This document shows positions 906-18,826 of a stretch of DNA of 58,294 nucleotides, in pieces. The position numbers and the translations under genes are program-made. The notes below the pieces were generated by a model. That model saw nothing but the letters and a program-made list of their open reading frames with translations. It was not told the origin of the DNA and ran no database searches. The DNA lies in assembly GCA_036498645.1 (NCBI GenBank), contig DASYFC010000201.1, positions 1-58,294 of the forward strand, given 5' to 3'. The first letter of the stretch is position 1. Every line of letters starts with the position of its first letter. The DNA is from Acidimicrobiia bacterium (lineage in GTDB: Bacteria; Actinomycetota; Acidimicrobiia; IMCC26256; JACDBD01).

Positions 906-1001
906 GGCTGCGACCTATCGGATGGCCGATGAGAGAGGGATGAGGCAGGGGTTACACTACGCGGAGGCCGGCCTGGCATTCCGGCCACATATCAGTCCCG
1001 G

Positions 1002-1077
1002 GGCCGACAACCCCGCGGTGGGCGACCAGGCTGTCCCCGCCGGCCACAACCGGGGCTTCCCGAAAGGGAACACACCC
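1002..1077 (+). promoter_or_regulatory. Candidate NAD+ class-I (nadA-motif-like) riboswitch / structured 5' leader of nadA
   Basis: Two GGCC-ACAACC repeats (1002-1014 and 1042-1053). The first folds as a bulged stem-loop: GGCCG(1002-1006)/CGGCC(1041-1045), a 5' bulge ACAACCCC(1007-1014), then GCGG(1015-1018)/CCGC(1037-1040). The second is followed by a TTCCC-GAAA-GGGAA hairpin (1057-1070), which buries the only SD-like purine run, about 8 nt before the nadA ATG. Confidence 0.4.
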
Positions 1078-2918: not shown

Positions 2919-2956
2919 GCCGACCGCCGGAATACAGGGCAAAGCAGATCTGCCAT

Positions 2957-3340
2957 ATGGACTACCATATGCGCATGGCGAACGACCGACCGGGCCGACT
3001 CACGCTCAGCGCGCTGGGGAGCGGGCGACTCATCCGTGAGGCCCGCCGCCTAGGCGGGCTGACGCAAGCCGACCTCGCGCGACGGCTCGGGACGACCCAG
3101 TCCGCGGTCTCGAACTGGGAGCGCGGTCGCGACACTCCTCGGGTCGACACCCTGGCCCGGATCCTCGAGGCGTGCGGCTTCGAAGCCGACATGACGTTCC
3201 GGCGTCTCGACGACGTCGACCGCGCACAGATTCGCGAGAACCTCGCGATGACACCGGCGGAGCGTCTCCGATCCGTGCGCAACGTGTCCAAGCTCCGCGC
3301 CAAGGCGCGCCGGGTCGAACGCGAGCCCGCGCGTGCCTAA
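2957..3340 (+). CDS. XRE-family helix-turn-helix protein (antitoxin-like)
   Basis: HTH block LTQADLARRLGTTQSAVSNWERG. The start is possibly at 2975 (MANDRPG). The 3' end overlaps the next gene by 8 nt. Confidence 0.75.
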   Translation: MDYHMRMANDRPGRLTLSALGSGRLIREARRLGGLTQADLARRLGTTQSAVSNWERGRDTPRVDTLARILEACGFEADMTFRRLDDVDRAQIRENLAMTPAERLRSVRNVSKLRAKARRVEREPARA

Positions 3341-3839
3341 GCCGCTGCAACCCGAGAAGCTGTTCCAGGTGCTTGCTGACCATCGTGTCGACTACGTGCT
3401 CATCGGCGGGCTCGCGGCGACGCTGCACGGCTCCTCCGCGCTCACGAACGATGCCGACATCTGTCCGGAGCCCTCGCCCGAGAATCGTGAGCGGCTCGCG
3501 GCCGCGCTGCGGGACATTCGGGCTCGCGTCAGAACCGAGGCCGAGCCCGACGGCGTCCGCTTCTCCGTCGATGCCGACTTCTTGCGGCGCACGCAGCTCG
3601 TGAACCTCACGACGCAGTACGGCGACTTCGACATCGCGTTTCAGCCTGCCGGCAGCCGCGGATACGAGGATCTCATCGGCGATGCGATCGAACTGGAGAT
3701 CGACGGGACCGTCGTCCGTGTCGCGTCGCTCGCGGACATCATTCGGTCGAAGGAGATCGCGAACCGCCCGAAGGACCGCGCCACGCTGCCGATCCTCTAC
3801 GCCCTGCAGGACGAGATCGCGCGGCGCGCCGCGACGTAG
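3333..3839 (+). CDS. Minimal nucleotidyltransferase-fold protein (toxin-like partner of the XRE gene)
   Basis: GTG start. Pol-beta-type NTase signature IGGLAATLHGSSALTNDADI (G[GS]...DxD), plus a later acidic YGDFDIAF and a C-terminal SLADIIRSKEIANRPKDRATL block. Confidence 0.65.
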   Translation: MPKPLQPEKLFQVLADHRVDYVLIGGLAATLHGSSALTNDADICPEPSPENRERLAAALRDIRARVRTEAEPDGVRFSVDADFLRRTQLVNLTTQYGDFDIAFQPAGSRGYEDLIGDAIELEIDGTVVRVASLADIIRSKEIANRPKDRATLPILYALQDEIARRAAT

Positions 3840-3847
3840 CCGCCGCC

Positions 3848-6745
3848 TCACGCGACGGCGTGCTCGTCGAGCCCGAGGATCGGCGCGAGGAAGCTTCCCG
3901 TGTAGCTACCTTCGGTCTTTGCGACGTGCTCGGGCGAGCCCTCGGCCACGATCTGCCCCCCGGCGTCACCGCCCTCCGGCCCGAGGTCGATGATCCAGTC
4001 CGCCGACTTGATCACGTCGAGGTTGTGCTCGATCACCAACACGGTGTTCCCGCCCTCTACGAGGCGCGAGAGCACGCCGAGCAGCCGCTTCGTGTCCTCG
4101 AAATGCAACCCGGTCGTCGGCTCGTCGAGCATGTACACGGTGCGCCCGGTGGCCCGCTTCCCGAGCTCCGATGCCAGCTTCACCCGCTGCGCCTCGCCGC
4201 CCGACAGTGTGGGCGCGGGCTGCCCGAGCCGCACGTAGCCGAGCCCGACGTCGAACAGGGTCTGGAGCTGGCGGGCGATCGGCGGCTGGTGCTTGAAGAA
4301 CTCGAGCGCCTCCTCGATCGACATGTCGAGGACCTCGGCGATGTTCTTGTTCTTGAACGTGACGTCGAGCGTGTCCCGGTTGTAGCGGGCGCCCTTGCAC
4401 ACCTCGCACGGCACGTAGACATCGGGAAGGAAGTGCATCTCGATCTTGATCGTCCCGTCGCCGGCGCACGCCTCGCACCGGCCGCCCTTCACGTTGAACG
4501 AGAACCTTCCGGGCAGGTAGCCCCGCACCTTCGCCTCGAGGCTCGACGCGAACAGCGTGCGGATCTTGTCGAACACACCCGTGTACGTCGCGGGGTTGGA
4601 CCGTGGTGTCCGACCGATCGGCGACTGGTCGATGTTGATGACCTTGTCGACGAGCTCCGTACCCTCGATCGTCTTGTGGCGGCCGGGCACGGTCCGTGAC
4701 CGGTACACCTTCTGCATGAGCGCGTGGTAGAGGATGTCGTTCACCAACGTCGACTTGCCGCTGCCGCTCACGCCCGTGATCGCGACGAAGCACCCGAGCG
4801 GGAAGTCGACGTCGATGTTCTGCAGGTTGTGCTCGCGCGCGTCCCGTACCGTCAGCCACGCCTCGCCCGGCTGGCGGCGCATCTCCGGGACCGGAATGGA
4901 CCGCTCCCCCGCCAGGTACTGACCGGTGATCGACCGCGGCTCGGCGAGAACGTCGTCGAGCGTGCCGCGGGCGACGATCTCGCCACCGTGCTCCCCGGCA
5001 CCTGGCCCGATGTCGACGATGGTGTCGGCCGATCGGATCGTCTCTTCGTCGTGCTCGACGACGATCACCGTGTTCCCGAGGTCACGAAGCCGCAGGAGGG
5101 TGTCGAGGAGCCGGTGGTTGTCGCGCTGGTGCAACCCGATCGACGGCTCGTCGAGCACGTACAGCACCCCGACCAGTCCGCTGCCGATTTGCGACGCCAG
5201 CCGGATGCGCTGCGCTTCGCCGCCGGCGAGCGTCGCCGACGACCGGTTCAACGACAAGTAGTTGAGCCCCACGTCGAGCAGGAAGCGGAGCCGCTCGTTG
5301 ACTTCCTTCAACACTGCTTCGGCGATCATCAGGTCGCGCTCGGACAGCTCGAGCCCGCCGAGGAATTCCGCCGCCTTGGCGATCGACAACTGCCCGAGCT
5401 CGTAGATGTTCATCCCGCCGACCGTGACCGCCAGCGAGGCCGGCCGCAGCCGGGCGCCGTGACACACGGGGCACGGCACCTCACGCATGTAGCCCTCGAT
5501 CTGCTCGCGCACCCGGTCGCTCTCCGCTTCGGAGTGGCGGCGTTCGAGCCACGGCACCACGCCCTCGAACTCTGTCGTGTACGAGCGCTGCCGCCCGTAC
5601 CGGTTGCGGTACCGGACGTTGATCGCGCGCTTGCCCGAACCGTGGAGCACGGCTTGCTTGTCGCGCTTGCGGAGCTTGCGCCAAGGCGTGTCGACCGAAA
5701 AGCCGTACTCCTTCGCTACCGCGCCGAGCACCCGGTCGAAGTACTGGCTGCGGAACCCGGCCCACGGCGCGATTGCGCCCTCGGTGATGCTGAGGTCGTC
5801 GTCGGAGACGACCAGCTCCGGATCGACCTCGAAGCGGGTCCCGAGCCCGTCGCAACGCTCGCACGCGCCGTAGGGCGAATTGAACGAGAAGTTGCGCGGC
5901 GCGAGCTCCTCGAACGACAAGCCGCAACTGGCACAGGCCAGGTGCTCCGAGAAGGTGAGGACCTCGCGGTCCTCGTCGTGCTCTTCCTCGCCTTCCCGCG
6001 GGACGATCTCGACCTCGGCGACACCCTCGGCCAGGCGCAGCGCCGTCTCGAGCGAGTCGGTGAGCCGGCGTTCGATGCCCGCGCGCCGAACCAGCCGGTC
6101 GACGACCACCTCGATCGTGTGCTGCTCGTACCGGGCGAGTCGCTCCCGACTCGCCGCGTGACCGCCCGAGCCGCGCATGCTCGACAGCTCGTGCACCTCG
6201 CCGTCGATCCGCGCCCGGGTGAACCCCTGACCGGCGAGCTCGGTCAGCAGCCCCTCGTACTCGCCCTTCCGGCCCCGCACGACGGGCGCGAGCACCTGGA
6301 ACCGCGTGCCGTCCGGCAGCTGGAGCACCCGGTCGACGATCTGTTGGGGCGTCTGCCGGGTAATGACCCGACCGCAGTTGGGACAATGGGGCAGGCCGAT
6401 CCGGGCGTAGAGAAGCCGCAGATAGTCGTAGATCTCGGTGATCGTCCCGACGGTCGACCGCGGGTTCTTCGACGCCGACTTCTGGTCGATCGAGATCGCC
6501 GGCGACAGGCCCTCGATGAAGTCGACGTCGGGCTTGTCCATCTGGCCGAGGAACTGACGGGCGTACGCGGACAGCGACTCGACGTACCGGCGCTGCCCCT
6601 CGGCGTAGATCGTGTCGAACGCCAGCGAGGACTTCCCCGAGCCCGACAAGCCGGTGAAGACGATCAGGCGGTCCCGGGGCAGCTCGAGGTCGACGTTCTT
6701 GAGGTTGTGCTCTCGAGCCCCCCGGATCGTGATTGCATCCGCCAC
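3848..6745 (-). CDS. uvrA: Excinuclease ABC subunit A
   Basis: 965 aa. Two ABC ATPase modules ([23 protein letters not shown] and [10 protein letters not shown]), Zn-finger cysteines (CPVCHGARL) and LSGGEAQR signatures. GTG start at 6745. Confidence 0.97.
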
Positions 6746-6774
6746 GACGTCAGTTTACCGGGACGGCCGTCCGA

Positions 6775-6790
6775 GCGAACGGATGTTCGG
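6775..6790. promoter_or_regulatory. Candidate LexA SOS box (GAAC-N4-GTTC palindrome) upstream of uvrA
   Basis: GCGAACGGATGTTCGG lies 30 nt upstream of the uvrA GTG. On the uvrA strand it sits 17 nt upstream of a TAAACT hexamer that ends 6 nt before the GTG. Confidence 0.5.
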
Positions 6791-6799
6791 GGGCCCTTC

Positions 6800-7150
6800 C
6801 TATCGGCGCCGAAGCTCGTCCCGGATCTCGGTGAGCACCTCCACCTCGGTGGGCTTCTTCTCCCGGGTGAAGAGCCGGTCGGCCGCCCGGACGATGAAGA
6901 ACAGCACCGTTCCGATGATCACGAAGTTGACGACGGCGGTGATGAACCTGCCGTAGGCGACCACTCCGTCGCCGACCTTGAAGGTCAGATCGTTGAAGTT
7001 CGGCTTGCCGAACAGGGCGCCGATCACCGGCATGATCACGTTGTTCACGAGAGATAGGACGACCGCGCCGAACGCGATGCCGATGATCACCGCCACCGCG
7101 AGGTCGATGACATTGCCGCGGAGCAGGAACTTCCTCAGATCCTGGAGCAC
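6800..7150 (-). CDS. mscL: Large-conductance mechanosensitive channel
   Basis: 116 aa. The N-terminus [24 protein letters not shown] is typical of MscL. Two TM helices. Confidence 0.9.
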
Positions 7151-7203
7151 TGCGCCCTCCTCGGTCGGCCGATCGTCGGCGCAGGTCTACCCGGTTCGGC
7201 GCC

Positions 7204-9240
7204 TCAGCTCACCTCGCGCAGCTCCCGCTTGAGCTCACCGATCTCGTCGCGCAGGCGGGCGGCCTCCTCGAAGCGGAGATCCTTCGCCGCGTCGTGCATC
7301 TCGTCCTGGAGGGTCTGGATGAGCTTGCCGACGTCGTCCGGCGCGACCCCCTCGAGATCGAAGACCGCCGAACGCTTGGGACCGCGCCCACGTCCCCGGC
7401 CCCGGCCTCGACCGACGCGTACGTCGTCGTCTTCTCCCTCACGGGCGCGCACCATCTCGAGGATGTCGACGACCTTCTTGCGGATCGTCTGGGGGTCGAT
7501 CCCGTGCTCGGCGTTGAACTCGAGCTGCACCTTCCGCCGCCGGTTCGTCTCGGAGATGGCTCGGCGCATCGAGTCCGTCACCTGGTCGGCGTACATGACC
7601 ACCTGACCGTCGACGTTGCGGGCGGCGCGCCCCATCGTCTGGATCAGCGACGTGTCGGAGCGCAGGAAGCCCTCCTTGTCGGCGTCGAGGATCGCAACCA
7701 GCGACACCTCGGGAAGGTCGAGGCCCTCACGCAGCAGGTTGATGCCGACGAGCACGTCGAACTCGCCGAGGCGCAGCGCCCGGAGAATCTCGACCCGTTC
7801 GAGCGTGTCGATCTCGCTGTGCAGGTACCGGACCCGAATGCCCAGCTCGATCAGGTAGTCGGTCAGGTCCTCGGACATCTTCTTCGTGAGCGTCGTGACG
7901 AGCACGCGCTGCTCGGCCTCGGCGCGGGCGTTGATCTCGGCGACGAGGTCGTCGATCTGGCCTTTGGTCGGCTTCACGATCACCTCGGGGTCGACGAGCC
8001 CGGTGGGCCGCACGATCTGCTCGACGACCTGCTTGGACTTCTCGAGCTCGTACTCGCCGGGTGTCGCCGACATGAAGACCACCTGGTTCACGTGCTCGAT
8101 GAACTCGTTGAACCGCAGGGGCCGGTTGTCGAGCGCGGACGGGAGCCGGAAGCCGTGCTCGACGAGCGTCTCCTTGCGGGACCGGTCACCCTCGTACTGC
8201 CCGTGCAGCTGCGGGACCGTCACGTGCGACTCGTCGAGCACGCAGAGGAAGTCGTCGGGGAAGTAATCGAGCAGGGTGTACGGCATCTGGCCGGCCTCCC
8301 GGCCGTCGAGGAACCGCGAGTAGTTCTCGATCCCGGAGCAGGTGCCGATCTCGCGGAGCATCTCGAGGTCGTAGGTCGTACGCATCCGCAGGCGCTGCGC
8401 TTCCAGCAGCTTGCCCTTCGACTCGAACCACGCCAGCCGATCCTTGAGCTCGGCCTCGATGCCCTCGATCGCGCGCTCCATGTGGTCCTCGTCGGTGACG
8501 TAGTGCGACGCCGGGAACAGCACGAACCGATCGAGCTCCTCGACGATCTCGCCGGTGACGGCGTCGACGGAGTACATCCGCTCGATCTCGTCGCCGAAGA
8601 GCTGGATGCGCACGCCCCGTTCCTCGTAGGCGGGGAACACCTCGATCGAGTCCCCTCGCACCCGGAACTTGTTCCGGACGAAGCCCTCGTCGTTGCGCTC
8701 GTACTGGAGCTCGACGAGCCGGCGCAGGATCGCCCGCTGGTCGTGCTCCTCCCCCACGCCGAGCATGAGGCACTGCTGCTCGTACAGCTCGGGTGAGCCC
8801 AGGCCGTAGATCGCTGAGACCGACGCCACGATGATCACGTCCCTGCGGGACATGAGGGCGCTCGTGGCGGAGTGACGGAGCCGGTCGATCTCGTCGTTGA
8901 TCGACGAGTCCTTCTCTATATACGTGTCGGACGACGGGACGTAGGCCTCGGGCTGGTAGTAGTCGTAATAGGAGACGAAGTACTCCACCCGGTTCTTGGG
9001 GAAGAACTCGCGGAACTCGCTCGCCAGCTGGGCGGCCAAGCTCTTGTTGGGGGCGAGGATGAGCGTGGGACGCTGGGCCCGGGCGATCGCGCCGGCGATC
9101 GTGAACGACTTCCCGGACCCGGTGATGCCGAGCAGCGTCTGGTACCGGTCGCCCCGCTCGACGCCGGTCGCGAGCGCCTCGATCGCCTCCGGCTGGTCAC
9201 CGGCGGCCGTGAACGGGGAAACGAGCTCGAGGAGCGGCAT
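7204..9240 (-). CDS. uvrB: Excinuclease ABC subunit B
   Basis: 678 aa. Walker [15 protein letters not shown] box (DESHVTVPQ) and a C-terminal UVR domain ([11 protein letters not shown]). An unusual (RG)5 linker lies at about 7378-7413. Confidence 0.97.
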
Positions 9241-9435
9241 TCGTCCGATGGTACCGGCGGCGTGTGACGGCCTCGCCGATGTCGGGGATAGCGTTCGTCA
9301 CATTCTCGGCGTCGAGAAAGGGGGAGCCGCATGAGGCGTCGCTGAGCGCACGCCAGCCTCGCCCGGTCGGGCGAACGCAGCCGCTCCCTCTCGGGCGCGC
9401 GGCTGCCGTAACCACACGGAACCGCAGGAGGATCC

Positions 9436-10566
9436 ATGGACTACGAATCTGCGCTCGCGCGCGTCATCGATGACGTCGTCGAGCCCGGCGCCGTCGCCGT
9501 CGACCGCGACGGGACCTACCCCCGAGCTCAGCTCGAGGCGCTCGGCGAGGCCGGCATCCTCGGGCTCGCCAGCTCGCCGGACGTCGGGGGCGGCGGTGCG
9601 GACCTCGGCGCGGCGGCCTCCGTCGTGGAGCAGCTCGCCCGCCACTGCGGGTCGACGGCGATGGTCGTGATGATGCATTACTCGGCGACGGCCGTCATCG
9701 AGGCGCACGGCCCGCAGGAGATCCGCGAGGCGATCGCCGCCGGTCGCCACGTGACGACGCTCGCGTTTTCGGAGACCGGGAGCCGGAGCCACTTCTGGGC
9801 CCCGGTCGGCACCGCGACCCGGCAGAACGGCGCCGTCCGCCTCGACGCCCAGAAGAGCTGGGTCACGGCCGCGGGTGAGGCCGACAGCTATGTCTGGTCG
9901 AGCCGACCCATGGCGGCGGCGGGCCCGATGACGCTGTGGATCGTCCCGTCGGACGCCCCCGGCCTCAACGTGCCGGCGCCGTTCGACGGTCTCGGGCTGC
10001 GCGGGAACGCTTCGAGCCCGGTGACGGCGGACGCCGTCGAGGTGCCGGCGGCGGCGATGCTCGGCGGTGACGGTGCGGGGCTCGACATCGCGTTGACGGT
10101 CGTTCTCCCGTGGTTCCTCGTGCTGAACGCGGCTGCGAGCATCGGCTTGATGCAGGCGGTGACGGACGAGGCGACGGCACACCTCACGCGCACCCAGCTC
10201 GTTCACCTCGGCCAGACACTCGCGCAGCAACCAGTCGGCCGGGCCCGCCTCGCTCAGATGCGCGTCGAGACCGATCAAGCCGCGGCGTTGCTGTCGCACG
10301 CGCTCGCAGCGATCGGGGCGGGCCGCGAGGACGCGCAGCTGCGCGTGCTCGAGGTCAAGGCGGCCGCCGGCGAAGCCGCGATCGACGTGACCGATCTCGC
10401 GATGCAGGTGTGCGGGGGCGCCGCGTTCCGCAAAGAGCTCGGCGTCGAGCGGCGGTTCCGCGACGCACGCGCCGCCCGGGTCATGGCACCTACGACCGAC
10501 GCCCTGAACGACTTCATCGGCCGCGCGCTGTGCGGCCTGCCGTTGCTCGACGAGGCCCCGGCATGA
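9436..10566 (+). CDS. Acyl-CoA dehydrogenase-fold flavoprotein (type-2 / DszC-, SfnB- or nitrososynthase-like)
   Basis: 376 aa. ACAD-like blocks AFSETGSRSHFWAP, LGLRGNASSPV and C-terminal RRFRDARAARVMAPT. Strong SD (GCAGGAGGA) before the ATG. Confidence 0.8.
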   Translation: MDYESALARVIDDVVEPGAVAVDRDGTYPRAQLEALGEAGILGLASSPDVGGGGADLGAAASVVEQLARHCGSTAMVVMMHYSATAVIEAHGPQEIREAIAAGRHVTTLAFSETGSRSHFWAPVGTATRQNGAVRLDAQKSWVTAAGEADSYVWSSRPMAAAGPMTLWIVPSDAPGLNVPAPFDGLGLRGNASSPVTADAVEVPAAAMLGGDGAGLDIALTVVLPWFLVLNAAASIGLMQAVTDEATAHLTRTQLVHLGQTLAQQPVGRARLAQMRVETDQAAALLSHALAAIGAGREDAQLRVLEVKAAAGEAAIDVTDLAMQVCGGAAFRKELGVERRFRDARAARVMAPTTDALNDFIGRALCGLPLLDEAPA

Positions 10567-11423
10567 GCGGCGACGCGCTCGTCATGGGCGCGGTCGCGTA
10601 CGACCCCAAGGTGGTGACGATCTGGGATGGGTTCCGGTCCTGGCTCCGCGGCCGCGGGCTCGAATTCGACTACATCCTGTACTCGAACTACGAGCGCCAG
10701 GTCGAGGAGCTGCTCACCGGCCGCATCGTCGCGGCATGGAACTCGCCGCTGGCGTGGATCCGTGCTCAGCGCCTCGGCGCCGCTGCGGGGGTCCCGGTGC
10801 AGGCGTTGACGATGCGTGACAGCGACCGCGATCTCACGTCGGTCGTCGTCGTCCGAGCCGACTCGGGGATCGCCGGCGTCGCCGATCTCGCGGGCAAGGT
10901 TGTCGCGACCGGCGCGATCGACTCGCCGCAGTCGACGCTGATCCCGCTCTCGTACCTGAGAGCGGCGGGGCTCGAACCCGGCCGTGATGTCGACGTGCGG
11001 CGGTTCGACGTGGGCGTCGGGCTCCACGGTGATCACATCGGCGGCGAACGCGAGGCCGCCCGAGCCCTCGTCGCCGGCGAGGTCGACGCCGCGTGCATGA
11101 TCGACGGCAACCACCTCGCGTTCGGCGCGGAAGGAACGCTGCCGGCCGGCACCACCGCCGTCATCGGGCAGACGGATCGGTTCGACCACTGCAACATGAC
11201 CGTGCGCTCCGACAGCCCCCGAAACCCGATCGCCCGGTTCAACGAGTTGCTGCTCGGAATGTCGTACGGCGACGCCGAGGTCCGGCCGCTGCTCGACCTG
11301 GAAGGGTTGAAGGCGTGGGAAGAGGGACGAACGTCCGGCTACGCGCTACTCGACGCGGCGGTGTCGGAGACAGGCTTCTACGACCATGAAGGACACATTG
11401 GCGACGCCGACTATCGACCTTGA
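10563..11423 (+). CDS. PhnD/SsuA-like periplasmic-binding-protein-fold protein without a signal peptide
   Basis: The internal ATG at 10563 overlaps the upstream stop (ATGA). MSGDALVMGAVAYDPKVVTIWDGF... shows an alternating beta-alpha pattern typical of type-2 binding proteins. No hydrophobic leader or lipobox. Confidence 0.6.
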   Translation: MSGDALVMGAVAYDPKVVTIWDGFRSWLRGRGLEFDYILYSNYERQVEELLTGRIVAAWNSPLAWIRAQRLGAAAGVPVQALTMRDSDRDLTSVVVVRADSGIAGVADLAGKVVATGAIDSPQSTLIPLSYLRAAGLEPGRDVDVRRFDVGVGLHGDHIGGEREAARALVAGEVDAACMIDGNHLAFGAEGTLPAGTTAVIGQTDRFDHCNMTVRSDSPRNPIARFNELLLGMSYGDAEVRPLLDLEGLKAWEEGRTSGYALLDAAVSETGFYDHEGHIGDADYRP

Positions 11424-12573
11424 GGGGCTCGGATTCGATCGCGGCGCCGGTCTCCTGCTCGAGCGAGCCCTCGCGGGGCTCTCACCCGGGAACCGCCTCG
11501 AGGTCGTGGGTCGCGATCCGGCCCTGACCGTCGACCTCGCACCCTGGTGCCGGAGACGCGGCCACCGCCTCGAAGCCGGAAACGTCGTGGTGAAGGGCTC
11601 CGCCGCCGCCGACCGGTGGCTCGGTGCCACGCGAGCGGGCGCGCCCGGGCCCGGTGGCGTCGTCGAACGACCCGACCCCGCCTGGGGGCTGGCGGCCCGC
11701 GGCGCGCTCGTCGAGGCCGGAGCGAAGCCGTCCGGCTTCGACCTGGACGAGCGCGCCGTCGTGTGGGCCGACATCGCGCCGCGTCTCTACGCGCAAGCGG
11801 TGGCGAGCCAGTGGGATCCCGCGACCGAGATCGCCTGGGACGCCGCCGAGGAGCTGCCGCCCGAGATCGAGGCGGCGGTGGTCCAGGTCATGACCTATCT
11901 CGTCGAGAACGAGCAGGCGGCGCTGGTCGTGCCTGCTCGCTTCGTCGGCCGGGTTCACCCACATTTCCGTGAGGTCATGCAGCTCCTCGCCGTTCAGGTC
12001 GCCGACGAAGCGCGCCACGTCGAGGTCTTCGCACGGCGCGCCGCGCTCCGCGGCGGTCCGCTCGGCGTGTCGACGACGGGAGGTCGAGCGTCGCTGCAGA
12101 CGCTCCTCGACGAGCCCGACTTCTCGCTGGCGTCGTTCCTGCTCTCCGTGCTCGGTGAGGGCACGTTCCTCAACCTCTTGTCGTTCATCGAGACCTATGC
12201 CCCCGACACGGTGACCCGCCAGGTCGCGCATCTCGCGCTCCAGGACGAAGCCCGCCACGTCGCGTTCGGCCTCGCGCACCTCGAGCACCGCGTCGAGATC
12301 GACCCCGGTCTGCTCGGACGGCTGCGCCTCGCGATCGAGCGTCGCCACGACGCGCTGGCGTCGACGGCAGGATTGAACCAGGACGTGTTCGACGCGCTCG
12401 TCGTGCTCGCTGCGGGCTCGTGGACGCCCGACGCGATCGCGACCGGTTATGAGCGGGTGCAGGCACTCACGGTCGACATGGACGACGGCCGCCGGCGCCG
12501 GCTCGCACGCCTCGGCTTCCCCGCCGACGAGTCGGCCGAGTTGTCCGCGCTACATACGCGCAACTTCATGTAG
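11386..12573 (+). CDS. Fusion of a TusA/SirA-like domain (no Cys) with a ferritin-like di-iron carboxylate domain
   Basis: The N-terminus IDLEGLGFDRGAGLLLERALAGLSPGNRLEVVGRDPALTVDLAPWCRRRGHRL aligns with TusA, but the CP motif is replaced by FD. The C-terminal half carries two E-x30-32-DEARH motifs (E176...DEARH207-211 and E258...DEARH287-291). Confidence 0.65.
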   Translation: MKDTLATPTIDLEGLGFDRGAGLLLERALAGLSPGNRLEVVGRDPALTVDLAPWCRRRGHRLEAGNVVVKGSAAADRWLGATRAGAPGPGGVVERPDPAWGLAARGALVEAGAKPSGFDLDERAVVWADIAPRLYAQAVASQWDPATEIAWDAAEELPPEIEAAVVQVMTYLVENEQAALVVPARFVGRVHPHFREVMQLLAVQVADEARHVEVFARRAALRGGPLGVSTTGGRASLQTLLDEPDFSLASFLLSVLGEGTFLNLLSFIETYAPDTVTRQVAHLALQDEARHVAFGLAHLEHRVEIDPGLLGRLRLAIERRHDALASTAGLNQDVFDALVVLAAGSWTPDAIATGYERVQALTVDMDDGRRRRLARLGFPADESAELSALHTRNFM

Positions 12574-13192
12574 CGCCCGCCCGGTCCTGCTCCTCGCGGT
12601 GCCGGCGCTGGAGGTCGGCCCAGACCTCGTCGATCTGGCGCTCGAGGTCGGCGCGGTCTCGGGCGTTGTCGACGACGTGCGTGGCGATCTTGCGCCGCTC
12701 CTCGTCGCCGGCCTGCGCGGCCATGCGCGCTTCGGCGTCGGCGCGATCGACGCCCCGGGCCTCGAGCCGCTCCAGGCGGACGTCGCGAGGCGCCTCCACG
12801 ACGATCACGGTCTGATAGGGGCGCTTACGAGCTTGCTCCGACTCGGCGAGGAGAGGGACGTCGAGCACGACGATGGCGTCGGTCGGCGCTTCGACCACGC
12901 GGCGCGAGAACTCGTCGTTGATGGCGGGATGCGTGATCGCCTCGAGGTCACGGCGCGCCTCGTCGTCACCGAATACGAGCTTCGCCAAGGCGCCGCGGTC
13001 GAGTCGCCCGTCGGCATCGAGGATGCCCTCTCCGAACCGCTCGACGAGCTTGTCCAGCGCGGGTTGCCCGGGGTCGACGACGGCTCGCGCCACCTGGTCG
13101 GCGTCGATGATGACCGCGCCCCGAGCGGCAAGCAGTTCGGCAACGGTGGACTTGCCGGCTCCGATCCCGCCGGTGAGCCCGACGAGGAGCAA
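12566..13192 (-). CDS. coaE: Dephospho-CoA kinase
   Basis: A TTG start at 13192 follows the rpsA stop by 1 nt. Walker A VGLTGGIGAGKSTVA. The longer ORF-track form overlaps rpsA and is Arg/Pro noise. Confidence 0.85.
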   Translation of the reverse strand: MLLVGLTGGIGAGKSTVAELLAARGAVIIDADQVARAVVDPGQPALDKLVERFGEGILDADGRLDRGALAKLVFGDDEARRDLEAITHPAINDEFSRRVVEAPTDAIVVLDVPLLAESEQARKRPYQTVIVVEAPRDVRLERLEARGVDRADAEARMAAQAGDEERRKIATHVVDNARDRADLERQIDEVWADLQRRHREEQDRAGAT

Positions 13193-13193
13193 T

Positions 13194-14639
13194 TCAGCCG
13201 GTCTCGGCCGGCGGCACGTCGTCGCCGGTTGCCGTCGCCTCCGCCGGCGTCTCGGTCGAGGGCTCGCCTGCAGCCGGTGCGTCCGGTGAGGCCGCGGCTT
13301 CGCCTGCCGCGGCTTCGGCGCTCGCGGCCGCCTCGGTCTCCTCGGCCGTGGGACCGATGTACTGGCCCTGCTCGTCGAAGGCGTCTTCGCCGAAGTGCTC
13401 GCGGTACTCGGCCGCGACCTCGCCACCCTCGGCCGCTTGCTTGATCGACAGCGAGATGCGCCGCCGGTCGAGATCGATGTCGATGATCTTCACCCACAGC
13501 TCTTCGCCTGGGGTGACGACCTGCTCGGGCGCTTCGACGTGGTGCGCCGCCATCTCCGAGATGTGCACCAGTCCCTCGATGCCCTCGCCGACCTGCACGA
13601 ACGCACCGAACGGCACGAGCTTGGTGACCTTCCCGTACACGAGCTCGCCGACCTGGTGGCCGTTCGCGAACTCCTGCCACGGATCCTGCTGCGTGGCTTT
13701 CAGTGACAGCGAGATGCGTTCGCGGTCGAGATCGACGTCGAGCACCTGCACCTCGACCTCGTCGCCGACCTGCACCACCGAGCTCGGGTGGTCGACGTGC
13801 TTCCAGCTCAGCTCGGAGACGTGCACCAGGCCGTCCATGCCGCCGAGGTCGACGAAAGCGCCGAAGTTCACGACGGACGAGACCACGCCCTTCCGGATCT
13901 CACCTGGCTTCAGGTTGGCGAGGAACTCGTCGCGCTGCTCGCGCTGCGTCTCCTCGAGGTACGCGCGCCGTGAGAGCACGACGTTGTTGCGGTTCTTGTC
14001 GAGCTCGATGATCTTGGCGTCGAGGTTCCGGCCGACGAACGGATGCAGGTCGCGCACCCGGCGCAGGTCGACAAGTGACGCGGGCAGGAAACCGCGGAGC
14101 CCGATGTCGAGGATCAGACCACCCTTGACCACCTCGATGACCGGCCCGGAGACGATGCCGTCCTTCTCCTTGACCGCCTCGATCGTCCCCCACGCGCGCT
14201 CGTACTGCGCGCGCTTCTTCGACAGGATCAGCCGGCCGTCCTTGTCCTCCTTCTGGAGGACGAGCGCCTCGAGCTCCTCGCCCAGATCGACGACCTCGTG
14301 GGGGTCGATGTCGTTGCGGATCGAGAGCTCGCGGGACGGGATGACACCCTCGGACTTGTAGCCGATGTCGAGCAGGACCTCGTCGCTGTCGATCTTGACG
14401 ACCTTGCCGGACACGATGTCGCCGTCGTCGAACTCGACGATCGTGGCATCCACCGCATCCGAGAAGGATTGCGTCCCGAGGTCGTCGAGGACGACCGGAC
14501 CGCCGTCGGGCGGGGACTCGGCGGTTGCTACGGCGCCCGCAGCGCCGGATGGCTGCGAGGCCGCAGCCGACTCACTCTGACTCGTCTCGGGCACGGGAGC
14601 GTTGTCGGTCGCTCCTGTGGCCTCCTGCTCGGACAACAT
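13194..14639 (-). CDS. rpsA: 30S ribosomal protein S1
   Basis: ATG at 14639 is preceded by AAGGAG. Repeated S1 domains (GEIRKGVVSSVVNFGAFVDLGGMDGLVHVSELS and others). Acidic Ala/Glu-rich C-terminal tail. Confidence 0.95.
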   Translation of the reverse strand: MLSEQEATGATDNAPVPETSQSESAAASQPSGAAGAVATAESPPDGGPVVLDDLGTQSFSDAVDATIVEFDDGDIVSGKVVKIDSDEVLLDIGYKSEGVIPSRELSIRNDIDPHEVVDLGEELEALVLQKEDKDGRLILSKKRAQYERAWGTIEAVKEKDGIVSGPVIEVVKGGLILDIGLRGFLPASLVDLRRVRDLHPFVGRNLDAKIIELDKNRNNVVLSRRAYLEETQREQRDEFLANLKPGEIRKGVVSSVVNFGAFVDLGGMDGLVHVSELSWKHVDHPSSVVQVGDEVEVQVLDVDLDRERISLSLKATQQDPWQEFANGHQVGELVYGKVTKLVPFGAFVQVGEGIEGLVHISEMAAHHVEAPEQVVTPGEELWVKIIDIDLDRRRISLSIKQAAEGGEVAAEYREHFGEDAFDEQGQYIGPTAEETEAAASAEAAAGEAAASPDAPAAGEPSTETPAEATATGDDVPPAETG

Positions 14640-14747
14640 TGCTCCTTGGAAACAGTGATCGCTCCCCCTGCCTGCCGGCGCACCTCGGGTGACGACGCGA
14701 GCGCGGGAAACCGGCCCCGGAGGACCGTTCACCAGGCTAACCCACGG

Positions 14748-15536
14748 TCAGGTGTGCCGCCGAGCCAGGAGCAGCAATTCGGGGTCGTCGAGCGTCGGCG
14801 ACGCGGTTCCGTAGCGTCCCGGTGCGACGCCGTGCACGCCGACCGCATCGAGCCCGGCGCGCCCGGCAAGCAGCTGGAGCTCGCGCGCCGTGAAGCACGT
14901 CGTCCAGAGGTCGAACACCTCCTCCGCGCCGTCCTCGTTGCGGACGGTGGACCGCTCGTGGAGCACACCGGTGGCGGGGTCGAAGCTCTCCCCCTCCTCG
15001 AGGAAGCGGACGGCGAAGGCGGCGGAAAAAGCGGTGAGGGCGAGCCGGCCACCGGGACGGAGCGCGGCGGCGATGCGCTCGAAGGCCCGGGGCTCGTCGC
15101 GGCCACCGAGGAGCCCGAACCCTCCCTGGCAGAGGCAGACGACGGCGTCGAACTCGCCGTCGTACGCAAGGTCGCGGACGTCGCCGACCTCGAAGCGCGC
15201 CGGCAGCCCGTCCGCCTCGGCCGCGTCTCGGGCCAAGGTGATGAAGTCCTCCGACAGGTCGACGCCCACCACGTCGATCCCGCCTCGGGCGAGCGCGAGC
15301 GCATGGCGCCCCGGGCCGCACCCGACGTCGAGCACCCGTGCACCGCGCTCGAGCCCGAGCGCGTCGACGAGGAACGCGACGTCTTGCTCCGTTCCCTTCG
15401 TGAACGCGTTCCGCAGGTACGCCGGGCCCAGAAACCGAGCGATCCGGTTGAACCATGGACCCGTTGGCGTCAGGGGCGTCTCAGTCACGCAGCGAGGGTC
15501 CTTCCTCTCGCCTGTGCATGGACGAGTTGTCCGCAC
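14748..15536 (-). CDS. Class I SAM-dependent methyltransferase
   Basis: 262 aa. Motif VLDVGCGPGRHALALA. A GTG at 15488 is an alternative start. Confidence 0.8.
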   Translation of the reverse strand: MRTTRPCTGERKDPRCVTETPLTPTGPWFNRIARFLGPAYLRNAFTKGTEQDVAFLVDALGLERGARVLDVGCGPGRHALALARGGIDVVGVDLSEDFITLARDAAEADGLPARFEVGDVRDLAYDGEFDAVVCLCQGGFGLLGGRDEPRAFERIAAALRPGGRLALTAFSAAFAVRFLEEGESFDPATGVLHERSTVRNEDGAEEVFDLWTTCFTARELQLLAGRAGLDAVGVHGVAPGRYGTASPTLDDPELLLLARRHT

Positions 15537-15641
15537 TCGGGCGCGTTGGTCGATTTGTTCGATCGGTGTGCGCGTCGCGAGTACGTCGGTACGGAAGGTT
15601 CACCGTGGTCTGGTCGTCCGGCCGCGCATAGCGTCCCGCCG

Positions 15642-15932
15642 GTGGGTATCCGCTGGTCGCCGGAGACCCAACCACCGAAGCTCACGTTGGGCGAATGGCT
15701 CTGCATCGTCCGCGCCCGGGCCGGCATCAGCCGCAAAGAGCTTGGCGCCGACCTTGGCGTTTCCGGTGCGCTCGTGTCCCAATGGGAAGCCGACGACAGC
15801 CTGCCGAACGTCGAGCAGTTCCGTGACATCACAGAGCTCTGCGCGGCTCACTGGCTTTGGGAAGCGGTCAAAGACGGGGACGTATGCATGGGACCGGAGG
15901 CGAAGGAGGTACGGGCCCGGCAACACACCTGA
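15642..15932 (+). CDS. Small XRE-family HTH protein
   Basis: This is the tail of ORF 14298..15932: LGEWLCIVRARAGISRKELGADLGVSGALVSQWEADDSLPNVEQF. The GTG start at 15642 is a guess. GC3 is visibly lower than in neighbouring genes. Confidence 0.5.
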   Translation: MGIRWSPETQPPKLTLGEWLCIVRARAGISRKELGADLGVSGALVSQWEADDSLPNVEQFRDITELCAAHWLWEAVKDGDVCMGPEAKEVRARQHT

Positions 15933-16021
15933 AGAGCAACCCTCATGGCGCGGCGTCGCATTGCGGTGAACACGCAGCCGCGATTCCATTGTCGCGAAGC
16001 GGAAGAGCAAAGCAGGCCGAC

Positions 16022-16150
16022 ATGGACAAGCTCGTGAGGCTATTTCACCATCCGCTGCCCAGGGTGCTGTTCTGGTTGACGATCATCTTGATCTTCGAAG
16101 CCCTGGACATCCCGTGGCGTTTACGGAAGCTGCGCGCCCGGCTCTCCTGA
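16022..16150 (+). CDS. Possible 42-aa single-pass membrane peptide
   Basis: MDKLVRLFHHPLPRVLFWLTIILIFEALDIPWRLRKLRARLS. Hydrophobic core with a basic tail, rare codons (cta, ttt, tta, ttg) and a weak RBS. Confidence 0.2.
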   Translation: MDKLVRLFHHPLPRVLFWLTIILIFEALDIPWRLRKLRARLS

Positions 16151-16168
16151 CGCCGAACGCCGAGCGCG

Positions 16169-18826
16169 CTACTTGGCTTCGGCCCACGTGGGACCGAACC
16201 CGAGGTCGACGACGAGCGGGACCTTCAGGGTGCACACGGACTCCATGACCTCGCGCACGAGCGCCTCGACGCGTTCGCGTTCGTCGAGCGGCACCTCGAG
16301 CACCAGCTCGTCGTGGACGGTGAGGACCATGCGGGCGCGGAGACCGGCGTCGTCGAGCGCCTGATCGAGCTCGACCATCGCCAGTTTGAAGACGTCGGCG
16401 GCCGAGCCTTGCACCGGCGCGTTCTGCGCCATGCGCTCCCCCATCTGCCGGATGCGGAAGTTGTCGGACGACAGCTCGGTGATCTGACGGCGACGGCCGA
16501 AGATCGTCGTCGTGTAGCCGCGCTGTTTCGCCTCTCGCACCGTGCTGTCCATGAACTCCTTCACGTTCGGGAAGCTCGCGAAGTAGTTGTCGAGGATCTC
16601 GCGTGCTTCCTCGGTCGGGACGCCGAGGCGCTGGCCGAGCCCGTACGCCTCCATCCCGTACGCGAGGCCGAAGTTGACGACCTTCGCGAAGCGGCGCTGG
16701 AAGGGATCGACGTCTTTCTCGTCGACGCCGAAGACCATCGCCGCCGTCGTGGTGTGGATGTCGGCGCTGCGGGAGAACGCTTCGACCAGCCCGGGATCGT
16801 CCGTGAGATGCGCGAGCACCCGCAGTTCGATCTGCGAGTAGTCGGCCGTCAGCAGCCCGCAGCCTTCGTCGGCGATGAACGCACGCCGCATCTCCCGGCC
16901 GTCGGCTGTGCGCACGGGGACGTTCTGGAGGTTCGGGTTCTCGCTCGAGATGCGACCGGTCGTCGTGTCGGTCTGCTTGAAGGTGGCGTGGATGCGCCCG
17001 TCGTCGTGGATGAGCGGAGGCAATGCGTCGGCGTACGTGCTGCGGAGCTTCTCGACTTCGCGGTAGCGCAAGAGGTCTTCGATGATCGGGTGCTCGTCGA
17101 CCATCTTCTGGAGCGAGTCGGCGTCGGTCGACGGGCCGGTCTTCGTCTTCTTCACCGGCGCCAAGCCGAGCTTCTCGAAGAGGACCTCGCGCAGCTGGGG
17201 CGTGGAGTTCACATTGAACTCCATCCCGGCGTGAGCCTGGATCTTCCCCACGAGGTCCTCGCAGCTCTGCGCGAGCTCGGCGCGCAGGCCCTCGAGGAAC
17301 TGGCGGTCGACCTTGACGCCGGCGTCCTCCATCCGCGCCAGCACACGTACGAGCGGCCGCTCGACGCGCTCGTAGAGGTCGGTGAGCTCGCGTGCCTCCA
17401 GCGCCTCGGCGAGCGTTCCGGCGAGGCGGCGCACAGCCAGGGCGCGCCGTCCCGTCTCTTCGACGCGGGACTGGCCGTCGAGGTCGAGGTCGAGCGTGCC
17501 CTCCTCGGCGTCGGGTGAGCGCACCTCGAGCGACAGATACCGCAGCGCAAGGTCCTCGAGCAGGTACTTCCCCTCGGCGGGATCCAGCAGGTACGCCATC
17601 ACCGCCGTGTCGTACCGCAGCGAGCGCACGTCGACGGGAAGGCCGTGCATCAGCTCCTTGGCGCGGTGGACGACCAGAGGCGGGCCGCCTTCACCGACGA
17701 GCGCGCCGAGTGCGTCGCTCACCTTCGCGTCGCGCAGCACGTCGCCGTCGATGTAGTCGGCGCGCCCGTCCTCGTTGCTGGCGGCGATGCCGAGCAGCGG
17801 GCTGCGGCCGGCGTCAGCTTCCCACCGGCCCTCGAGCACGTACGCGTCATCGACCGCGCCGAGGTCGCGCAACCGCGTAGCGGCCGCCGCCGCGTCCGGG
17901 ACGATCGCGACGTCGGCGTCGAACGACTCTGCCTCGGGCTCGGAGGCCTCTTCGCCGACCGCCTCGAACAATCGGGGCAGGAGCGTTCGGAACTCGAGCT
18001 GGTCGAACAGCACTCGCACCTGCTCGCGATCCCACGAGCGCTGCCGGAGGTCGGCGGCCGAGAAGTCGACCTCCACGTCCGACCGCAGCCGCGACATCTC
18101 GCGGTTGAGGAACACGCGGTCGCGTGCCTCACCGAGGTTCTGCCGTTGCTTGGGCGGCAACTCGTCGACGTGCTCGTAGATGCCCTCGAGGTCGCCGTAC
18201 GTCGAGACGAGCTTCGCCGCCGTCTTCTCGCCGATGCCGGGAACCCCGGGAAGGTTGTCGCTGGTGTCGCCGCGGAGCGCGGCATAGTCGGGATACTGCG
18301 CGGCGGTGACGCCACCGGTGCGCTCGACGATGCCGGCCTCGTCGTAGAGGACGTAGTCCGAGACGCCCCGCCGGTTGTACAGGACCTTGACGTGCGGGTC
18401 GTGGACGAGCTGGTAGGTGTCGCGGTCGCCGGTGACGATCACGGTGTCGATCCCCTCCCCCGCCGCCTGCTCGGCGAGGGTGGCGATGACGTCGTCGGCT
18501 TCGACCCCCTCGACCTCGACCGTGGGGATCGCGAGCGCTTCGAGCACCTCGTGGATCAACGGCAGCTGCGAGGAGAACACGTCCGGCGTCTCCTTGCGCC
18601 CCGCCTTGTACTCGGCGTCCATCTCGTCCCGGAACGTCGGCGCCCCGGTGTCGAAGGCGACGGCGATGTAGTCGGGCTTCTCGTCCCCGAGCATCTTGAT
18701 CAGCATCGAGGTGAAGCCGTAGACGGCGTTCGTGATCGTCCCGGTGCGGGTCGCGAGGTCGGTGGGGAGGGCATAAAAGGCCCGGTACGCCAGCGAGTGA
18801 CCGTCAAGAAGAAGGAGCTTTTTCAT
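16169..18826 (-). CDS. polA: DNA polymerase I
   Basis: 885 aa. The 5'-nuclease N-terminus is LLLLDGHSLAYRAFYALP. Polymerase motif A is LLTADYSQIELRVLAH, motif B RRFAKVVNFGLAYGM and motif C LTVHDELVLE. Confidence 0.97.
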   Translation of the reverse strand: MKKLLLLDGHSLAYRAFYALPTDLATRTGTITNAVYGFTSMLIKMLGDEKPDYIAVAFDTGAPTFRDEMDAEYKAGRKETPDVFSSQLPLIHEVLEALAIPTVEVEGVEADDVIATLAEQAAGEGIDTVIVTGDRDTYQLVHDPHVKVLYNRRGVSDYVLYDEAGIVERTGGVTAAQYPDYAALRGDTSDNLPGVPGIGEKTAAKLVSTYGDLEGIYEHVDELPPKQRQNLGEARDRVFLNREMSRLRSDVEVDFSAADLRQRSWDREQVRVLFDQLEFRTLLPRLFEAVGEEASEPEAESFDADVAIVPDAAAAATRLRDLGAVDDAYVLEGRWEADAGRSPLLGIAASNEDGRADYIDGDVLRDAKVSDALGALVGEGGPPLVVHRAKELMHGLPVDVRSLRYDTAVMAYLLDPAEGKYLLEDLALRYLSLEVRSPDAEEGTLDLDLDGQSRVEETGRRALAVRRLAGTLAEALEARELTDLYERVERPLVRVLARMEDAGVKVDRQFLEGLRAELAQSCEDLVGKIQAHAGMEFNVNSTPQLREVLFEKLGLAPVKKTKTGPSTDADSLQKMVDEHPIIEDLLRYREVEKLRSTYADALPPLIHDDGRIHATFKQTDTTTGRISSENPNLQNVPVRTADGREMRRAFIADEGCGLLTADYSQIELRVLAHLTDDPGLVEAFSRSADIHTTTAAMVFGVDEKDVDPFQRRFAKVVNFGLAYGMEAYGLGQRLGVPTEEAREILDNYFASFPNVKEFMDSTVREAKQRGYTTTIFGRRRQITELSSDNFRIRQMGERMAQNAPVQGSAADVFKLAMVELDQALDDAGLRARMVLTVHDELVLEVPLDERERVEALVREVMESVCTLKVPLVVDLGFGPTWAEAK

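Follow-up and report, generated by a model that had tools for sequence, protein, structure and literature searches.

A 58,294-nt stretch of DNA from an Acidimicrobiia bacterium (contig DASYFC010000201.1 of assembly GCA_036498645.1; GTDB JACDBD01), referred to here as the window, carries three overlapping genes that recur together as a unit, the triad, in many other bacteria. Gene 1 encodes a flavin adenine dinucleotide (FAD)-type protein with the acyl-CoA dehydrogenase (ACAD) fold, gene 2 a leaderless protein with the fold of the binding proteins PhnD and PtxB, and gene 3 a fusion of a TusA-like with a ferritin-like di-iron domain. The triad is the sister of the Rv1678-Rv1681 system of Mycobacterium tuberculosis, with a predicted oxygen-using di-iron protein replacing the radical S-adenosylmethionine (SAM) enzyme of that system. 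We propose that the three genes form one self-contained cytoplasmic redox system, serving neither transport nor beta-oxidation and acting on a small sulfur or selenium compound. We put the probability of this reading at about 45%. Its parts are of different strength: the architecture is likely to be as described, the assignment to sulfur or selenium (chalcogen) chemistry is tentative, and any single reaction that might be named for the system is improbable.

All three folds are already known, and the sister families have been named by locus tag by NCBI curators. What is new is the di-iron version, for which neither NCBIfam nor Pfam has a model. Literature searches on TusA with ferritin-like, ACAD and phosphonate, and on ergothioneine with di-iron, returned nothing functional and no paper on the di-iron triad. 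An earlier reading of the DNA letters (the original prediction) had stated that the combination matches no named pathway, and this is still so. The missing catalytic glutamate of gene 1, the kinship with Rv1679, Rv1680 and Rv1681, and the link to selenium genes go beyond it.

The three genes lie on the forward strand and are tightly coupled. A Shine-Dalgarno-like AGGAGG, read from the sequence (9424..9429), stands 6 nt 5' of the gene 1 ATG. The open reading frame (ORF) of gene 1 (9436..10566, 376 aa) ends in an ATGA (10563..10566), the 4 nt of which contain both its stop and the start of gene 2 (10563..11423, 286 aa). Gene 3 (11386..12573, 395 aa) starts with the ATG at 11386, and gene 2 stops at 11421-11423, giving an overlap of 38 nt (11386..11423). 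Both overlaps had been described in the original prediction, with coordinates that are exact. None of the alternative starts of gene 3 would preserve its conserved N-terminus. An overlap of approximately 35-38 nt between genes 2 and 3 is also present at loci L002, L006, L008 and L024, and a 4-nt overlap is used in other lineages.

Conservation was assessed with a scan anchored on gene 2, using one genome per species, and 80 loci were kept for neighbourhood counts. Relatives of gene 2 were confirmed in the genomes of at least 543 species, mostly Actinomycetota, and also in Pseudomonadota/Burkholderiales, Chloroflexia and Dormibacterota metagenome-assembled genomes (MAGs). There are more than 5,866 relatives of gene 3, with about 175 clusters passing E 1e-30 at 50% clustering, and more than 8,000 of gene 2; the three families together comprise thousands of sequences. 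Identity is approximately 65-72% between actinobacterial orders and 55-68% in Pseudomonadota. Gene 3 lies directly downstream of gene 2 in 78 of the 80 loci (72 complete, six cut by a contig end), and the remaining two consist of one without room for gene 3 and one with a gene 3 remnant. Gene 1 lies directly upstream of gene 2 in 72 of the 80, and within 4 kb on the opposite strand in three. Because it recurs in 72-78 of 80 independent loci, this arrangement is not due to chance. The possibility raised with the original prediction, that the three genes are not co-conserved in other genomes, is therefore refuted. No fourth gene was found in more than five lineages when all flanking ORFs were clustered. 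In a Helicobacter species the order is gene 3, gene 1, gene 2, among housekeeping genes, with 36% identity for gene 3. At L034 (6991-7080), in an actinobacterial MAG, the last 30 codons of gene 3 are all that is left of it after intact genes 1 and 2, which looks like decay of the di-iron gene.

The three predicted proteins

Gene 1 matches the Pfam domains Acyl-CoA_dh_N, _M and _1, and the ACAD fold originally assigned to it is thus well founded. Its further likening to the DszC/SfnB group needs a small correction. By sequence it is closer to classical ACADs, scoring 73 bits with Acyl-CoA_dh_1 versus 34 with Acyl-CoA_dh_2, and 129 bits with the AcrC hidden Markov model (HMM) versus 76 with SfnB and 60 with DszC, the cut-offs of which (431 and 850) are far above these scores. 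The best PDB relatives are true ACADs, such as human SCAD (E 3e-32). Among NCBIfam models the best is NF049984, the Rv1679/FadE16 family, at 385.5 bits, which does not reach the cut-off of 600.

The catalytic IYEGT of SCAD is aligned with VMAPT in gene 1, placing Ala351 at the catalytic position, and the alternative, IVD-type catalytic position is a Phe. VMAPT is invariant in 50 gene 1 orthologues. Ala351 is found in 86 of 87 aligned copies, the single exception probably being a paralogous ACAD, and His81 is likewise invariant in the orthologues. The FAD-site motifs KSWVT, CGGxAF and ERxFRDA are retained. Since the catalytic glutamate is absent, it is very unlikely that gene 1 encodes an ordinary acyl-CoA dehydrogenase with an alpha,beta-dehydrogenase role. 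The ACAD fold with FAD and without the catalytic glutamate is also seen in the desulfinase AcdDPN7, in DszC and in SfnB, which carry out sulfur-oxyanion chemistry. Gene 1 gives 96 bits with the 3-sulfinopropanoyl-CoA desulfinase model (cut-off 600), and Rv1679-type proteins give 95-109 bits. It differs from all of these in scoring far below the cut-offs and in the residues that replace the base. No flavin reductase gene recurs near the triad in the clustering of flanking ORFs.

Gene 2 had been described as having a periplasmic-binding fold without a signal peptide, and both points stand. It matches the Pfam family Phosphonate-bd (PF12974) with 97 bits. Signal peptide and lipobox are absent: strand 1 begins at residue 6, and homologues are all approximately 286 aa. 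The profile and structure searches suggested with the original prediction place its AlphaFold model (pLDDT, the per-residue model confidence, 91) nearest to PtxB, PhnD, HtxB, AioX and ArrX (Foldseek E 1e-19 to 1e-14; PtxB best, 8e-20), with TM-scores of 0.7-0.8 and E 1e-19 for the comparison with PtxB, PhnD, HtxB and AioX. The ligands bound by these fold neighbours are phosphite, phosphonate, hypophosphite, arsenite and arsenate. Gene 2 is below the curated cut-offs of TIGR01098 (49 vs 112), TIGR03431 (36 vs 261) and SsuA (34 vs 163). Its best NCBIfam model is NF049985, the Rv1680 family resembling substrate-binding proteins (SBP-like), at 216.5 bits, where the cut-off of 400 is not reached.

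Unlike PtxB and PhnD, gene 2 has neither a signal peptide nor adjacent transporter genes. None recur beside it in the flanking-ORF clustering. In the window, as had originally been noted, no permease or ATPase gene is near the triad, which is flanked by uvrB and coaE, and none recurs at the sampled loci as a partner of gene 2. Gene 2 is thus predicted not to be part of a transporter. A general phosphonate link was also considered and rejected, a real phnD/phnE transporter being nearby in one Pseudonocardiaceae clade only. In this clade (Actinosynnema, Saccharothrix and Labedaea; L012, L022, L040 and L071) the genes for a PhnE-type permease and for a genuine PhnD with a leader (201 bits) are found a few kb from the triad, at about 500-4000 or 8000-11500, and in L022, L040 and L071 gene 1 has switched strands and follows an MFS gene.

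The predicted pocket of gene 2 has been remodelled. In the profile alignment to PtxB the anion motif STS becomes S-P-Q. GAHD becomes GLHGDHIGGER, in which the ligand His is kept as His155, homologous to the ligand-site H157 of PhnD, and is followed by a 7-residue insertion. The aromatic PQYPW becomes DHCNM, bringing in His209 and an invariant Cys210. Without exception, the 91 copies of gene 2, distant Rv1680-type and Helicobacter proteins included, have H155, D157, H209 and C210. No selenocysteine was found at the invariant cysteines. The invariant HGDH loop (residues 152-156) is the sole stretch of the model with low confidence.

Gene 3 is made up of an N-terminal TusA-fold domain (approximately residues 1-70; 11386..11600), a linker (approximately residues 72-125; 11601..11760) that contains an invariant WGLAARGALVE and has low model confidence, and a ferritin-like di-iron carboxylate domain (11761..12573). 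The TusA-like part named in the original prediction was only partly borne out. PF01206 (TusA) gives 24.7 bits with the whole protein and 28.2 with the isolated domain, a borderline match to a cut-off of 28.6, and residues 1-70 are modelled as an alpha/beta fold with pLDDT 94-96. The persulfide cysteine is absent. E. coli TusA Cys19 is aligned with Arg19, and other members of the family have Q, S, H, T, D, A or E in place of this R. As the equivalent of Cys19 is freely variable, the domain is not expected to be a persulfide carrier.

The di-iron assignment is in good agreement with the alignment and the model. Each of the predicted ligands (E174/E176, E208, H211, E258, E288 and H291) is kept in 80-81 of 81 gene 3 copies. 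Of the two E-x30-DEARH motifs that had been read in the sequence the first is correct (E176-x30-DEARH); the second is spaced differently (E258-x28-DEARH). Foldseek matches are weak (best E 8e-4, identity 13-21%) and all of them are ferritin-like di-iron enzymes, namely aldehyde-deformylating oxygenase (ADO), R2lox, VlmB, PaaA/C and sMMO. Gene 3 shares with ADO, R2lox, AurF/VlmB and PaaA the helical bundle and the E...ExxH...E...ExxH ligands. In contrast to these enzymes it reaches no family cut-off (the AurF Pfam PF11583 gives 22.1-23.4 bits, cut-off 29.6), a TusA-fold domain and a conserved linker are fused to it, and its C-terminal tail is invariant. A sequence search of the PDB gave no significant match, with MiaE at E 0.15. 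On this evidence the gene 3 proteins are predicted to be a separate family within the ferritin-like di-iron superfamily. The extreme C-termini are conserved in gene 3 (invariant LHTRNFM), in gene 2 (YRP) and in the Rv1681 family (LFPCA, almost invariant), which suggests that they are docking tails.

Could a di-iron enzyme and an ACAD-fold protein be acting on lipids? A desaturase- or ADO-like enzyme with an ACAD-fold partner might desaturate, hydroxylate or cleave the chain of an acyl-CoA or an acyl carrier. Soluble acyl-acyl carrier protein desaturases carry D/E-E-x-R-H motifs, which the DEARH of gene 3 resembles. The best folds for gene 3, aldehyde-deformylating oxygenases and PaaA/C, act on acyl or acyl-CoA substrates, gene 1 keeps the ACAD FAD-site motifs, and an acyl-CoA synthetase gene is near the triad in three genera. 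However, gene 1 lacks the catalytic base, the fold matches of gene 3 are weak (E approximately 1e-3), lipid-metabolism genes do not recur nearby, and lipid or acyl-thioester modification offers no role for an oxyanion-binding fold with a His/Cys pocket. We regard it as distinctly unlikely.

The fold matches also bear on natural-product tailoring by two oxygenases, such as N-oxygenation by an ACAD-fold N-hydroxylase and an AurF/VlmB-like di-iron enzyme, which was one of the two readings first offered for these genes. ACAD-fold N-hydroxylases are known, the AurF Pfam match is present below threshold, and the azoxy synthase VlmB is among the gene 3 folds. Despite this, the reading is disfavoured and is highly improbable. 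There are no biosynthetic core genes nearby and the neighbours change in almost every lineage; the triad is a stand-alone module with approximately 70% identity across orders and housekeeping-like conservation in at least 543 species; and the sister system has a radical-SAM enzyme, which is not an oxygenase.

The Rv1678-Rv1681 sister system

The sister families have NCBIfam models: NF049986 for a membrane protein, NF049984 for the FadE16-type ACAD, NF049985 for the SBP-like protein and NF049973 for the 'MoeX' radical-SAM protein. MoeX (Rv1681) of M. tuberculosis is reportedly a urinary tuberculosis antigen. True Rv1679 and Rv1680 members were found by tblastn of gene 2 against plasmids. A plasmid of Mycolicibacterium vanbaalenii carries, one after the other, genes for an Rv1678-family membrane protein, the Rv1679 ACAD (631 bits), the Rv1680 SBP-like protein (495 bits) and the Rv1681 radical-SAM protein (536 bits). 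In an Arthrobacter chromosome the ACAD (637 bits), SBP-like (485 bits) and radical-SAM genes are followed by DoxD, an Rv1678 C-domain protein, GT2 and DUF2064. No function has been assigned in the literature on Rv1679-Rv1681, fadE16 and moeX.

The two systems share the gene order ACAD, SBP-like protein, then a metal or radical enzyme. Rv1679- and Rv1680-type proteins are 45-48% identical with gene 1 and 35-37% identical with gene 2, and the characteristic residues are the same in both: VMAPT and His81 in the ACAD, and H155, D157, H209 and C210 in the SBP-like protein. They differ in that genes 1 and 2 are below the cut-offs of the Rv1679 and Rv1680 families (385 vs 600; 216 vs 400), that the triad has no DoxX/Rv1678 membrane partner and no GT2/DUF2064 neighbours, and that the third slot holds a radical-SAM enzyme there and a ferritin-like di-iron protein here. 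A homologous ACAD and SBP-like core is therefore followed by either one or the other.

Is anything retained in the third slot? The sole Pfam match of the radical-SAM protein that is not radical SAM is TusA, in its first 60 residues (E 0.017), and hhalign of the gene 3 family against the radical-SAM family gives a single match, N-terminus to N-terminus (E 0.0025). These similarities are suggestive, not proof, of a docking domain common to both families, with the catalytic domain exchanged. The exchange can be compared, by analogy only, with C-P bond cleavage, which is carried out by the radical-SAM PhnJ or by the di-iron oxygenase PhnZ, both served by PhnD. There too a PhnD-fold binder for an R-XO3-type anion is combined with a radical-SAM or a di-iron enzyme; PhnJ and PhnZ have no homology to the triad, and phn genes are linked to it in one clade only.

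A mixed locus is present in Miltoncostaea, where an ACAD gene and a gene 2 relative (62% identity) are followed by DUF2515 and a radical-SAM/SPASM gene, with an Rv1681-like radical-SAM gene, DoxX, a carboxymuconolactone-decarboxylase (CMD) family gene, GT2 and DUF2064 upstream. The 295-aa gene after gene 2 at this locus was considered as a gene 3 relative and rejected, as it is DUF2515. Neighbours of the radical-SAM version include deiodinase-like, glutaredoxin, CcdA, disulfide-oxidoreductase, AhpD-like, TrsS-like radical-SAM and arsenite-methyltransferase-like genes. On the Mycolicibacterium plasmid at L086 (9482-11850) a TrsS/Tes-like radical-SAM gene (335 bits, cut-off 490) lies 1.7 kb from Rv1678-81 together with a DVU_1556/arsenite-methyltransferase-like gene, with CcdA and the disulfide oxidoreductase in between.

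A radical-SAM partner also raises the question of whether gene 2 is itself the substrate. The gene 2 protein might serve as a substrate or scaffold for a protein-derived cofactor, as in THI5-type suicide enzymes or the maturation of mycofactocin and PQQ. In that case the di-iron or radical-SAM enzyme would modify its HGDH loop or His209-Cys210, and processing by the flavoprotein would follow. Several observations are in favour of this: loop 152-156 is both invariant and the sole low-confidence part of the model, the next-best models of the Rv1681 family are peptide-modifying radical-SAM maturases, the NMT1/THI5 Pfam model is matched by gene 2 above its cut-off (23.3 vs 20.5), and two lineages with the radical-SAM version also have GT2 and CofC-like DUF2064 genes beside it. 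However, neither a SPASM nor an RRE domain was found in the Rv1681 family, the THI5 match spans generic fold elements only, and such a modification would leave the selenium-gene context unexplained. We consider it very unlikely.

Selenium and sulfur neighbours and the proposed function

Selenium genes (selD, selA/selB or senABC) adjoin the triad in seven lineages and egtB does so in two proteobacterial lineages. In Streptomyces polygonati (L091) selA, selB, selD and genes 1, 2 and 3 follow one another on one strand, and convergent NrfD and Fe-S genes come next. Beside these NrfD/4Fe-4S genes, on the minus strand (13294-16584), is an ORF of 1,096 codons with exactly one in-frame stop, which is probably a selenocysteine-containing formate-dehydrogenase-type subunit. 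In Amycolatopsis suaedae the order is genes 1, 2 and 3, selD, then senB (323 bits, cut-off 300) and senA (477 bits, cut-off 420), and senA, senB and selD are also beside the triad in Actinomadura litoris and a Pseudonocardiales MAG (L032 and L052). Directly 3' of gene 3, two further MAGs have selD alone (L055) or selA (L015), and another Actinomadura (L095) has selD-selA-selB 4.3 kb downstream of the triad. The egtB gene (566-579 bits, cut-off 360) adjoins it at three proteobacterial loci (L024, L039 and L065); egtD was not found beside the triad at these loci. Under random placement, the chance of seven or more selenium-gene adjacencies among 50-70 lineages is 2e-10 to 7e-6. The placement of the triad beside selD, sel, sen and egtB genes is non-random.

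Other data point in the same direction. The second-best NCBIfam model for Rv1680-type proteins is a putative selenate ABC transporter substrate-binding protein (82-84 bits). SirA/TusA-domain proteins (YedF), and likewise YedE, have been tied to SelD by comparative genomics, a TusA-fold domain being encoded beside selD, selA or selB as in the triad (PMC5322559). YedF differs from gene 3 in keeping the CPxP cysteine and in having a DsrE-like domain, where gene 3 has no such cysteine and a di-iron domain. According to reviews, a system dedicated to the uptake or delivery of selenium is not known (PMC9312934). The selenium comparative-genomics papers mention no ACAD, phosphonate-binding or ferritin-like candidates.

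A chalcogen context would also be compatible with the scavenging of organosulfur compounds or sulfonates, the other reading in the original prediction. Sulfite would then be released from an organosulfur compound under sulfur limitation by a flavin monooxygenase of the SfnB/DszC type, together with an SsuA-like binder and a TusA sulfur carrier. The chalcogen neighbours are what survives of this reading. Gene 1 has weak HMM matches to SfnB, DszC and 3-sulfinopropanoyl-CoA desulfinase and gene 2 to SsuA, and an SsuD-like monooxygenase is encoded upstream of the triad in L079. But all four scores are far under their cut-offs (SfnB 76 vs 431, DszC 60 vs 850, SsuA 34 vs 163, desulfinase 96 vs 600), gene 1 is nearer to classical ACADs, and the TusA cysteine of gene 3 is replaced. 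Genes for a flavin reductase, an ssu/tau transporter or a regulator of sulfur starvation do not recur near the triad, and the di-iron or radical-SAM partner is left unexplained. Scavenging is quite unlikely. Each of the four alternatives accounts for some of the features, but founders on the absence of catalytic or sulfur-carrying residues, on the stand-alone conserved context or on the radical-SAM sister.

How might the self-contained redox system proposed here work? Gene 2 would be a formerly periplasmic oxyanion-binding fold, now intracellular, which acts as a substrate-holding or catalytic subunit. Its cleft, with the PhnD/PtxB architecture lined by His155, Asp157, His209 and Cys210, could hold a small sulfur or selenium oxyanion or an organo-chalcogen. 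The O2-activating di-iron site of gene 3, with four Glu and two His ligands, would carry out a difficult redox or radical step, taken in the sister system by the radical-SAM cluster, and the cysteine-less TusA-fold domain would be a docking adaptor. The FAD protein encoded by gene 1 may pass electrons to or from the metal centre or catalyse a desulfinase-like, non-dehydrogenase step; acyl-CoA desaturation is not envisaged. The three proteins would form a complex. Selenite and sulfite, which share the pyramidal shape of phosphite and arsenite, are candidate ligands; others are thiosulfate, selenophosphate as an analogue of R-PO3, the sulfinate or seleninate forms of ergothioneine and selenoneine, or a conjugated organo-chalcogen. 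In selenium-using bacteria the triad would feed or service SelD-dependent pathways. We infer the substrate class from the gene neighbourhoods, and the subunit roles are likewise proposed.

Several points weigh against this proposal. At most triad loci the surrounding 6-10 kb are free of sel, sen and egt genes, and none was found in the 58 kb of the window. M. tuberculosis has the sister system and is not known to use selenium. For these reasons selenium cannot be the sole substrate. A di-iron 'oxygenase' would be an odd catalyst for reductive selenium supply. Five of the 80 loci have no ACAD gene within 6 kb, and gene 1 may therefore be dispensable or shared. Finally, the hhalign probability for the shared TusA-like N-terminal domain is only 12%, and comparisons of the two N-terminal domains by BLAST and by profile against single sequence were not significant.

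A more specific version of the proposal is that the triad and Rv1679-Rv1681 are chalcogen-mobilising machines. The gene 2-type protein would bind an oxyanion of selenium or sulfur, or else an organo-chalcogen, in its His/Cys pocket, the interchangeable di-iron or radical-SAM subunit and the base-less ACAD would convert it, and the product would be passed to SelD and to the ergothioneine and selenoneine enzymes. This version is unlikely as it stands. If it were true, the step that is missing for SelD, a dedicated delivery of selenium, would be accounted for, and three M. tuberculosis genes would gain a function.

The triad is a clean natural case of a di-iron/radical-SAM swap in one gene slot, and it appears to show the recruitment of a transporter binding protein to the cytoplasm with a putative His/Cys active site. 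It offers a testable route to the function of Rv1679-Rv1681, and its placement beside selD, selA/B, sen and egtB is a lead on the supply or recycling of selenium and sulfur for selenophosphate, selenoneine and ergothioneine. The annotations carried by its proteins ('acyl-CoA dehydrogenase', 'phosphonate ABC transporter substrate-binding protein' and 'hypothetical/ferritin-like protein') are misleading.

Some other neighbours occur at individual loci. Single neighbours on the chalcogen theme are TerC and an ArsR-rhodanese gene; at the proteobacterial locus L043 an ArsR-helix-turn-helix/rhodanese fusion gene lies between gene 3 and a DUF547 gene. The DUF547 gene (253 aa, 90-92% identical between loci) comes after the triad in L024 (4419-5180), L029 (2693-3454), L043 (9247-10008) and L065 (6267-7028). 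In two metagenomic contigs, L092 (11242-12075) and that of P0073, gene 3 is immediately followed by a convergent gene for a LigB-type extradiol dioxygenase, and MetE and a DsbA/Rv2466c-like gene are nearby on these contigs.

Setting of the triad in the window

The window has a G+C content of approximately 70%, and its nearest relatives are soil Actinomycetota/Acidimicrobiia MAGs. In a search for RNA data the sequence was matched in soil DNA metagenomes only. No Rfam riboswitch matched in this region of the window or upstream of the triad in 10 loci, and a promoter and terminator scan, uninformative at 70% GC, found nothing. The uvrB gene (7204-9240, minus strand) is divergent from the triad and coaE (12566-13426, minus strand) is convergent to it. 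The tails of gene 3 and coaE overlap by 8 nt (12566-12573), and no terminator-like site was found between them.

The surroundings also include uvrA, mscL, rpsA and polA. The triad is inserted in a conserved actinobacterial polA-rpsA-coaE...uvrB...uvrA region (3848-18826), with mscL between uvrA and uvrB. A functional tie of the triad to uvrA/uvrB was rejected, since this flanking is confined to close relatives of the window and one MAG labelled Chloroflexi. The loci concerned are L006-L008 and, in the 'Chloroflexi' MAG, L002, which may represent mis-binning or a transfer of the region.

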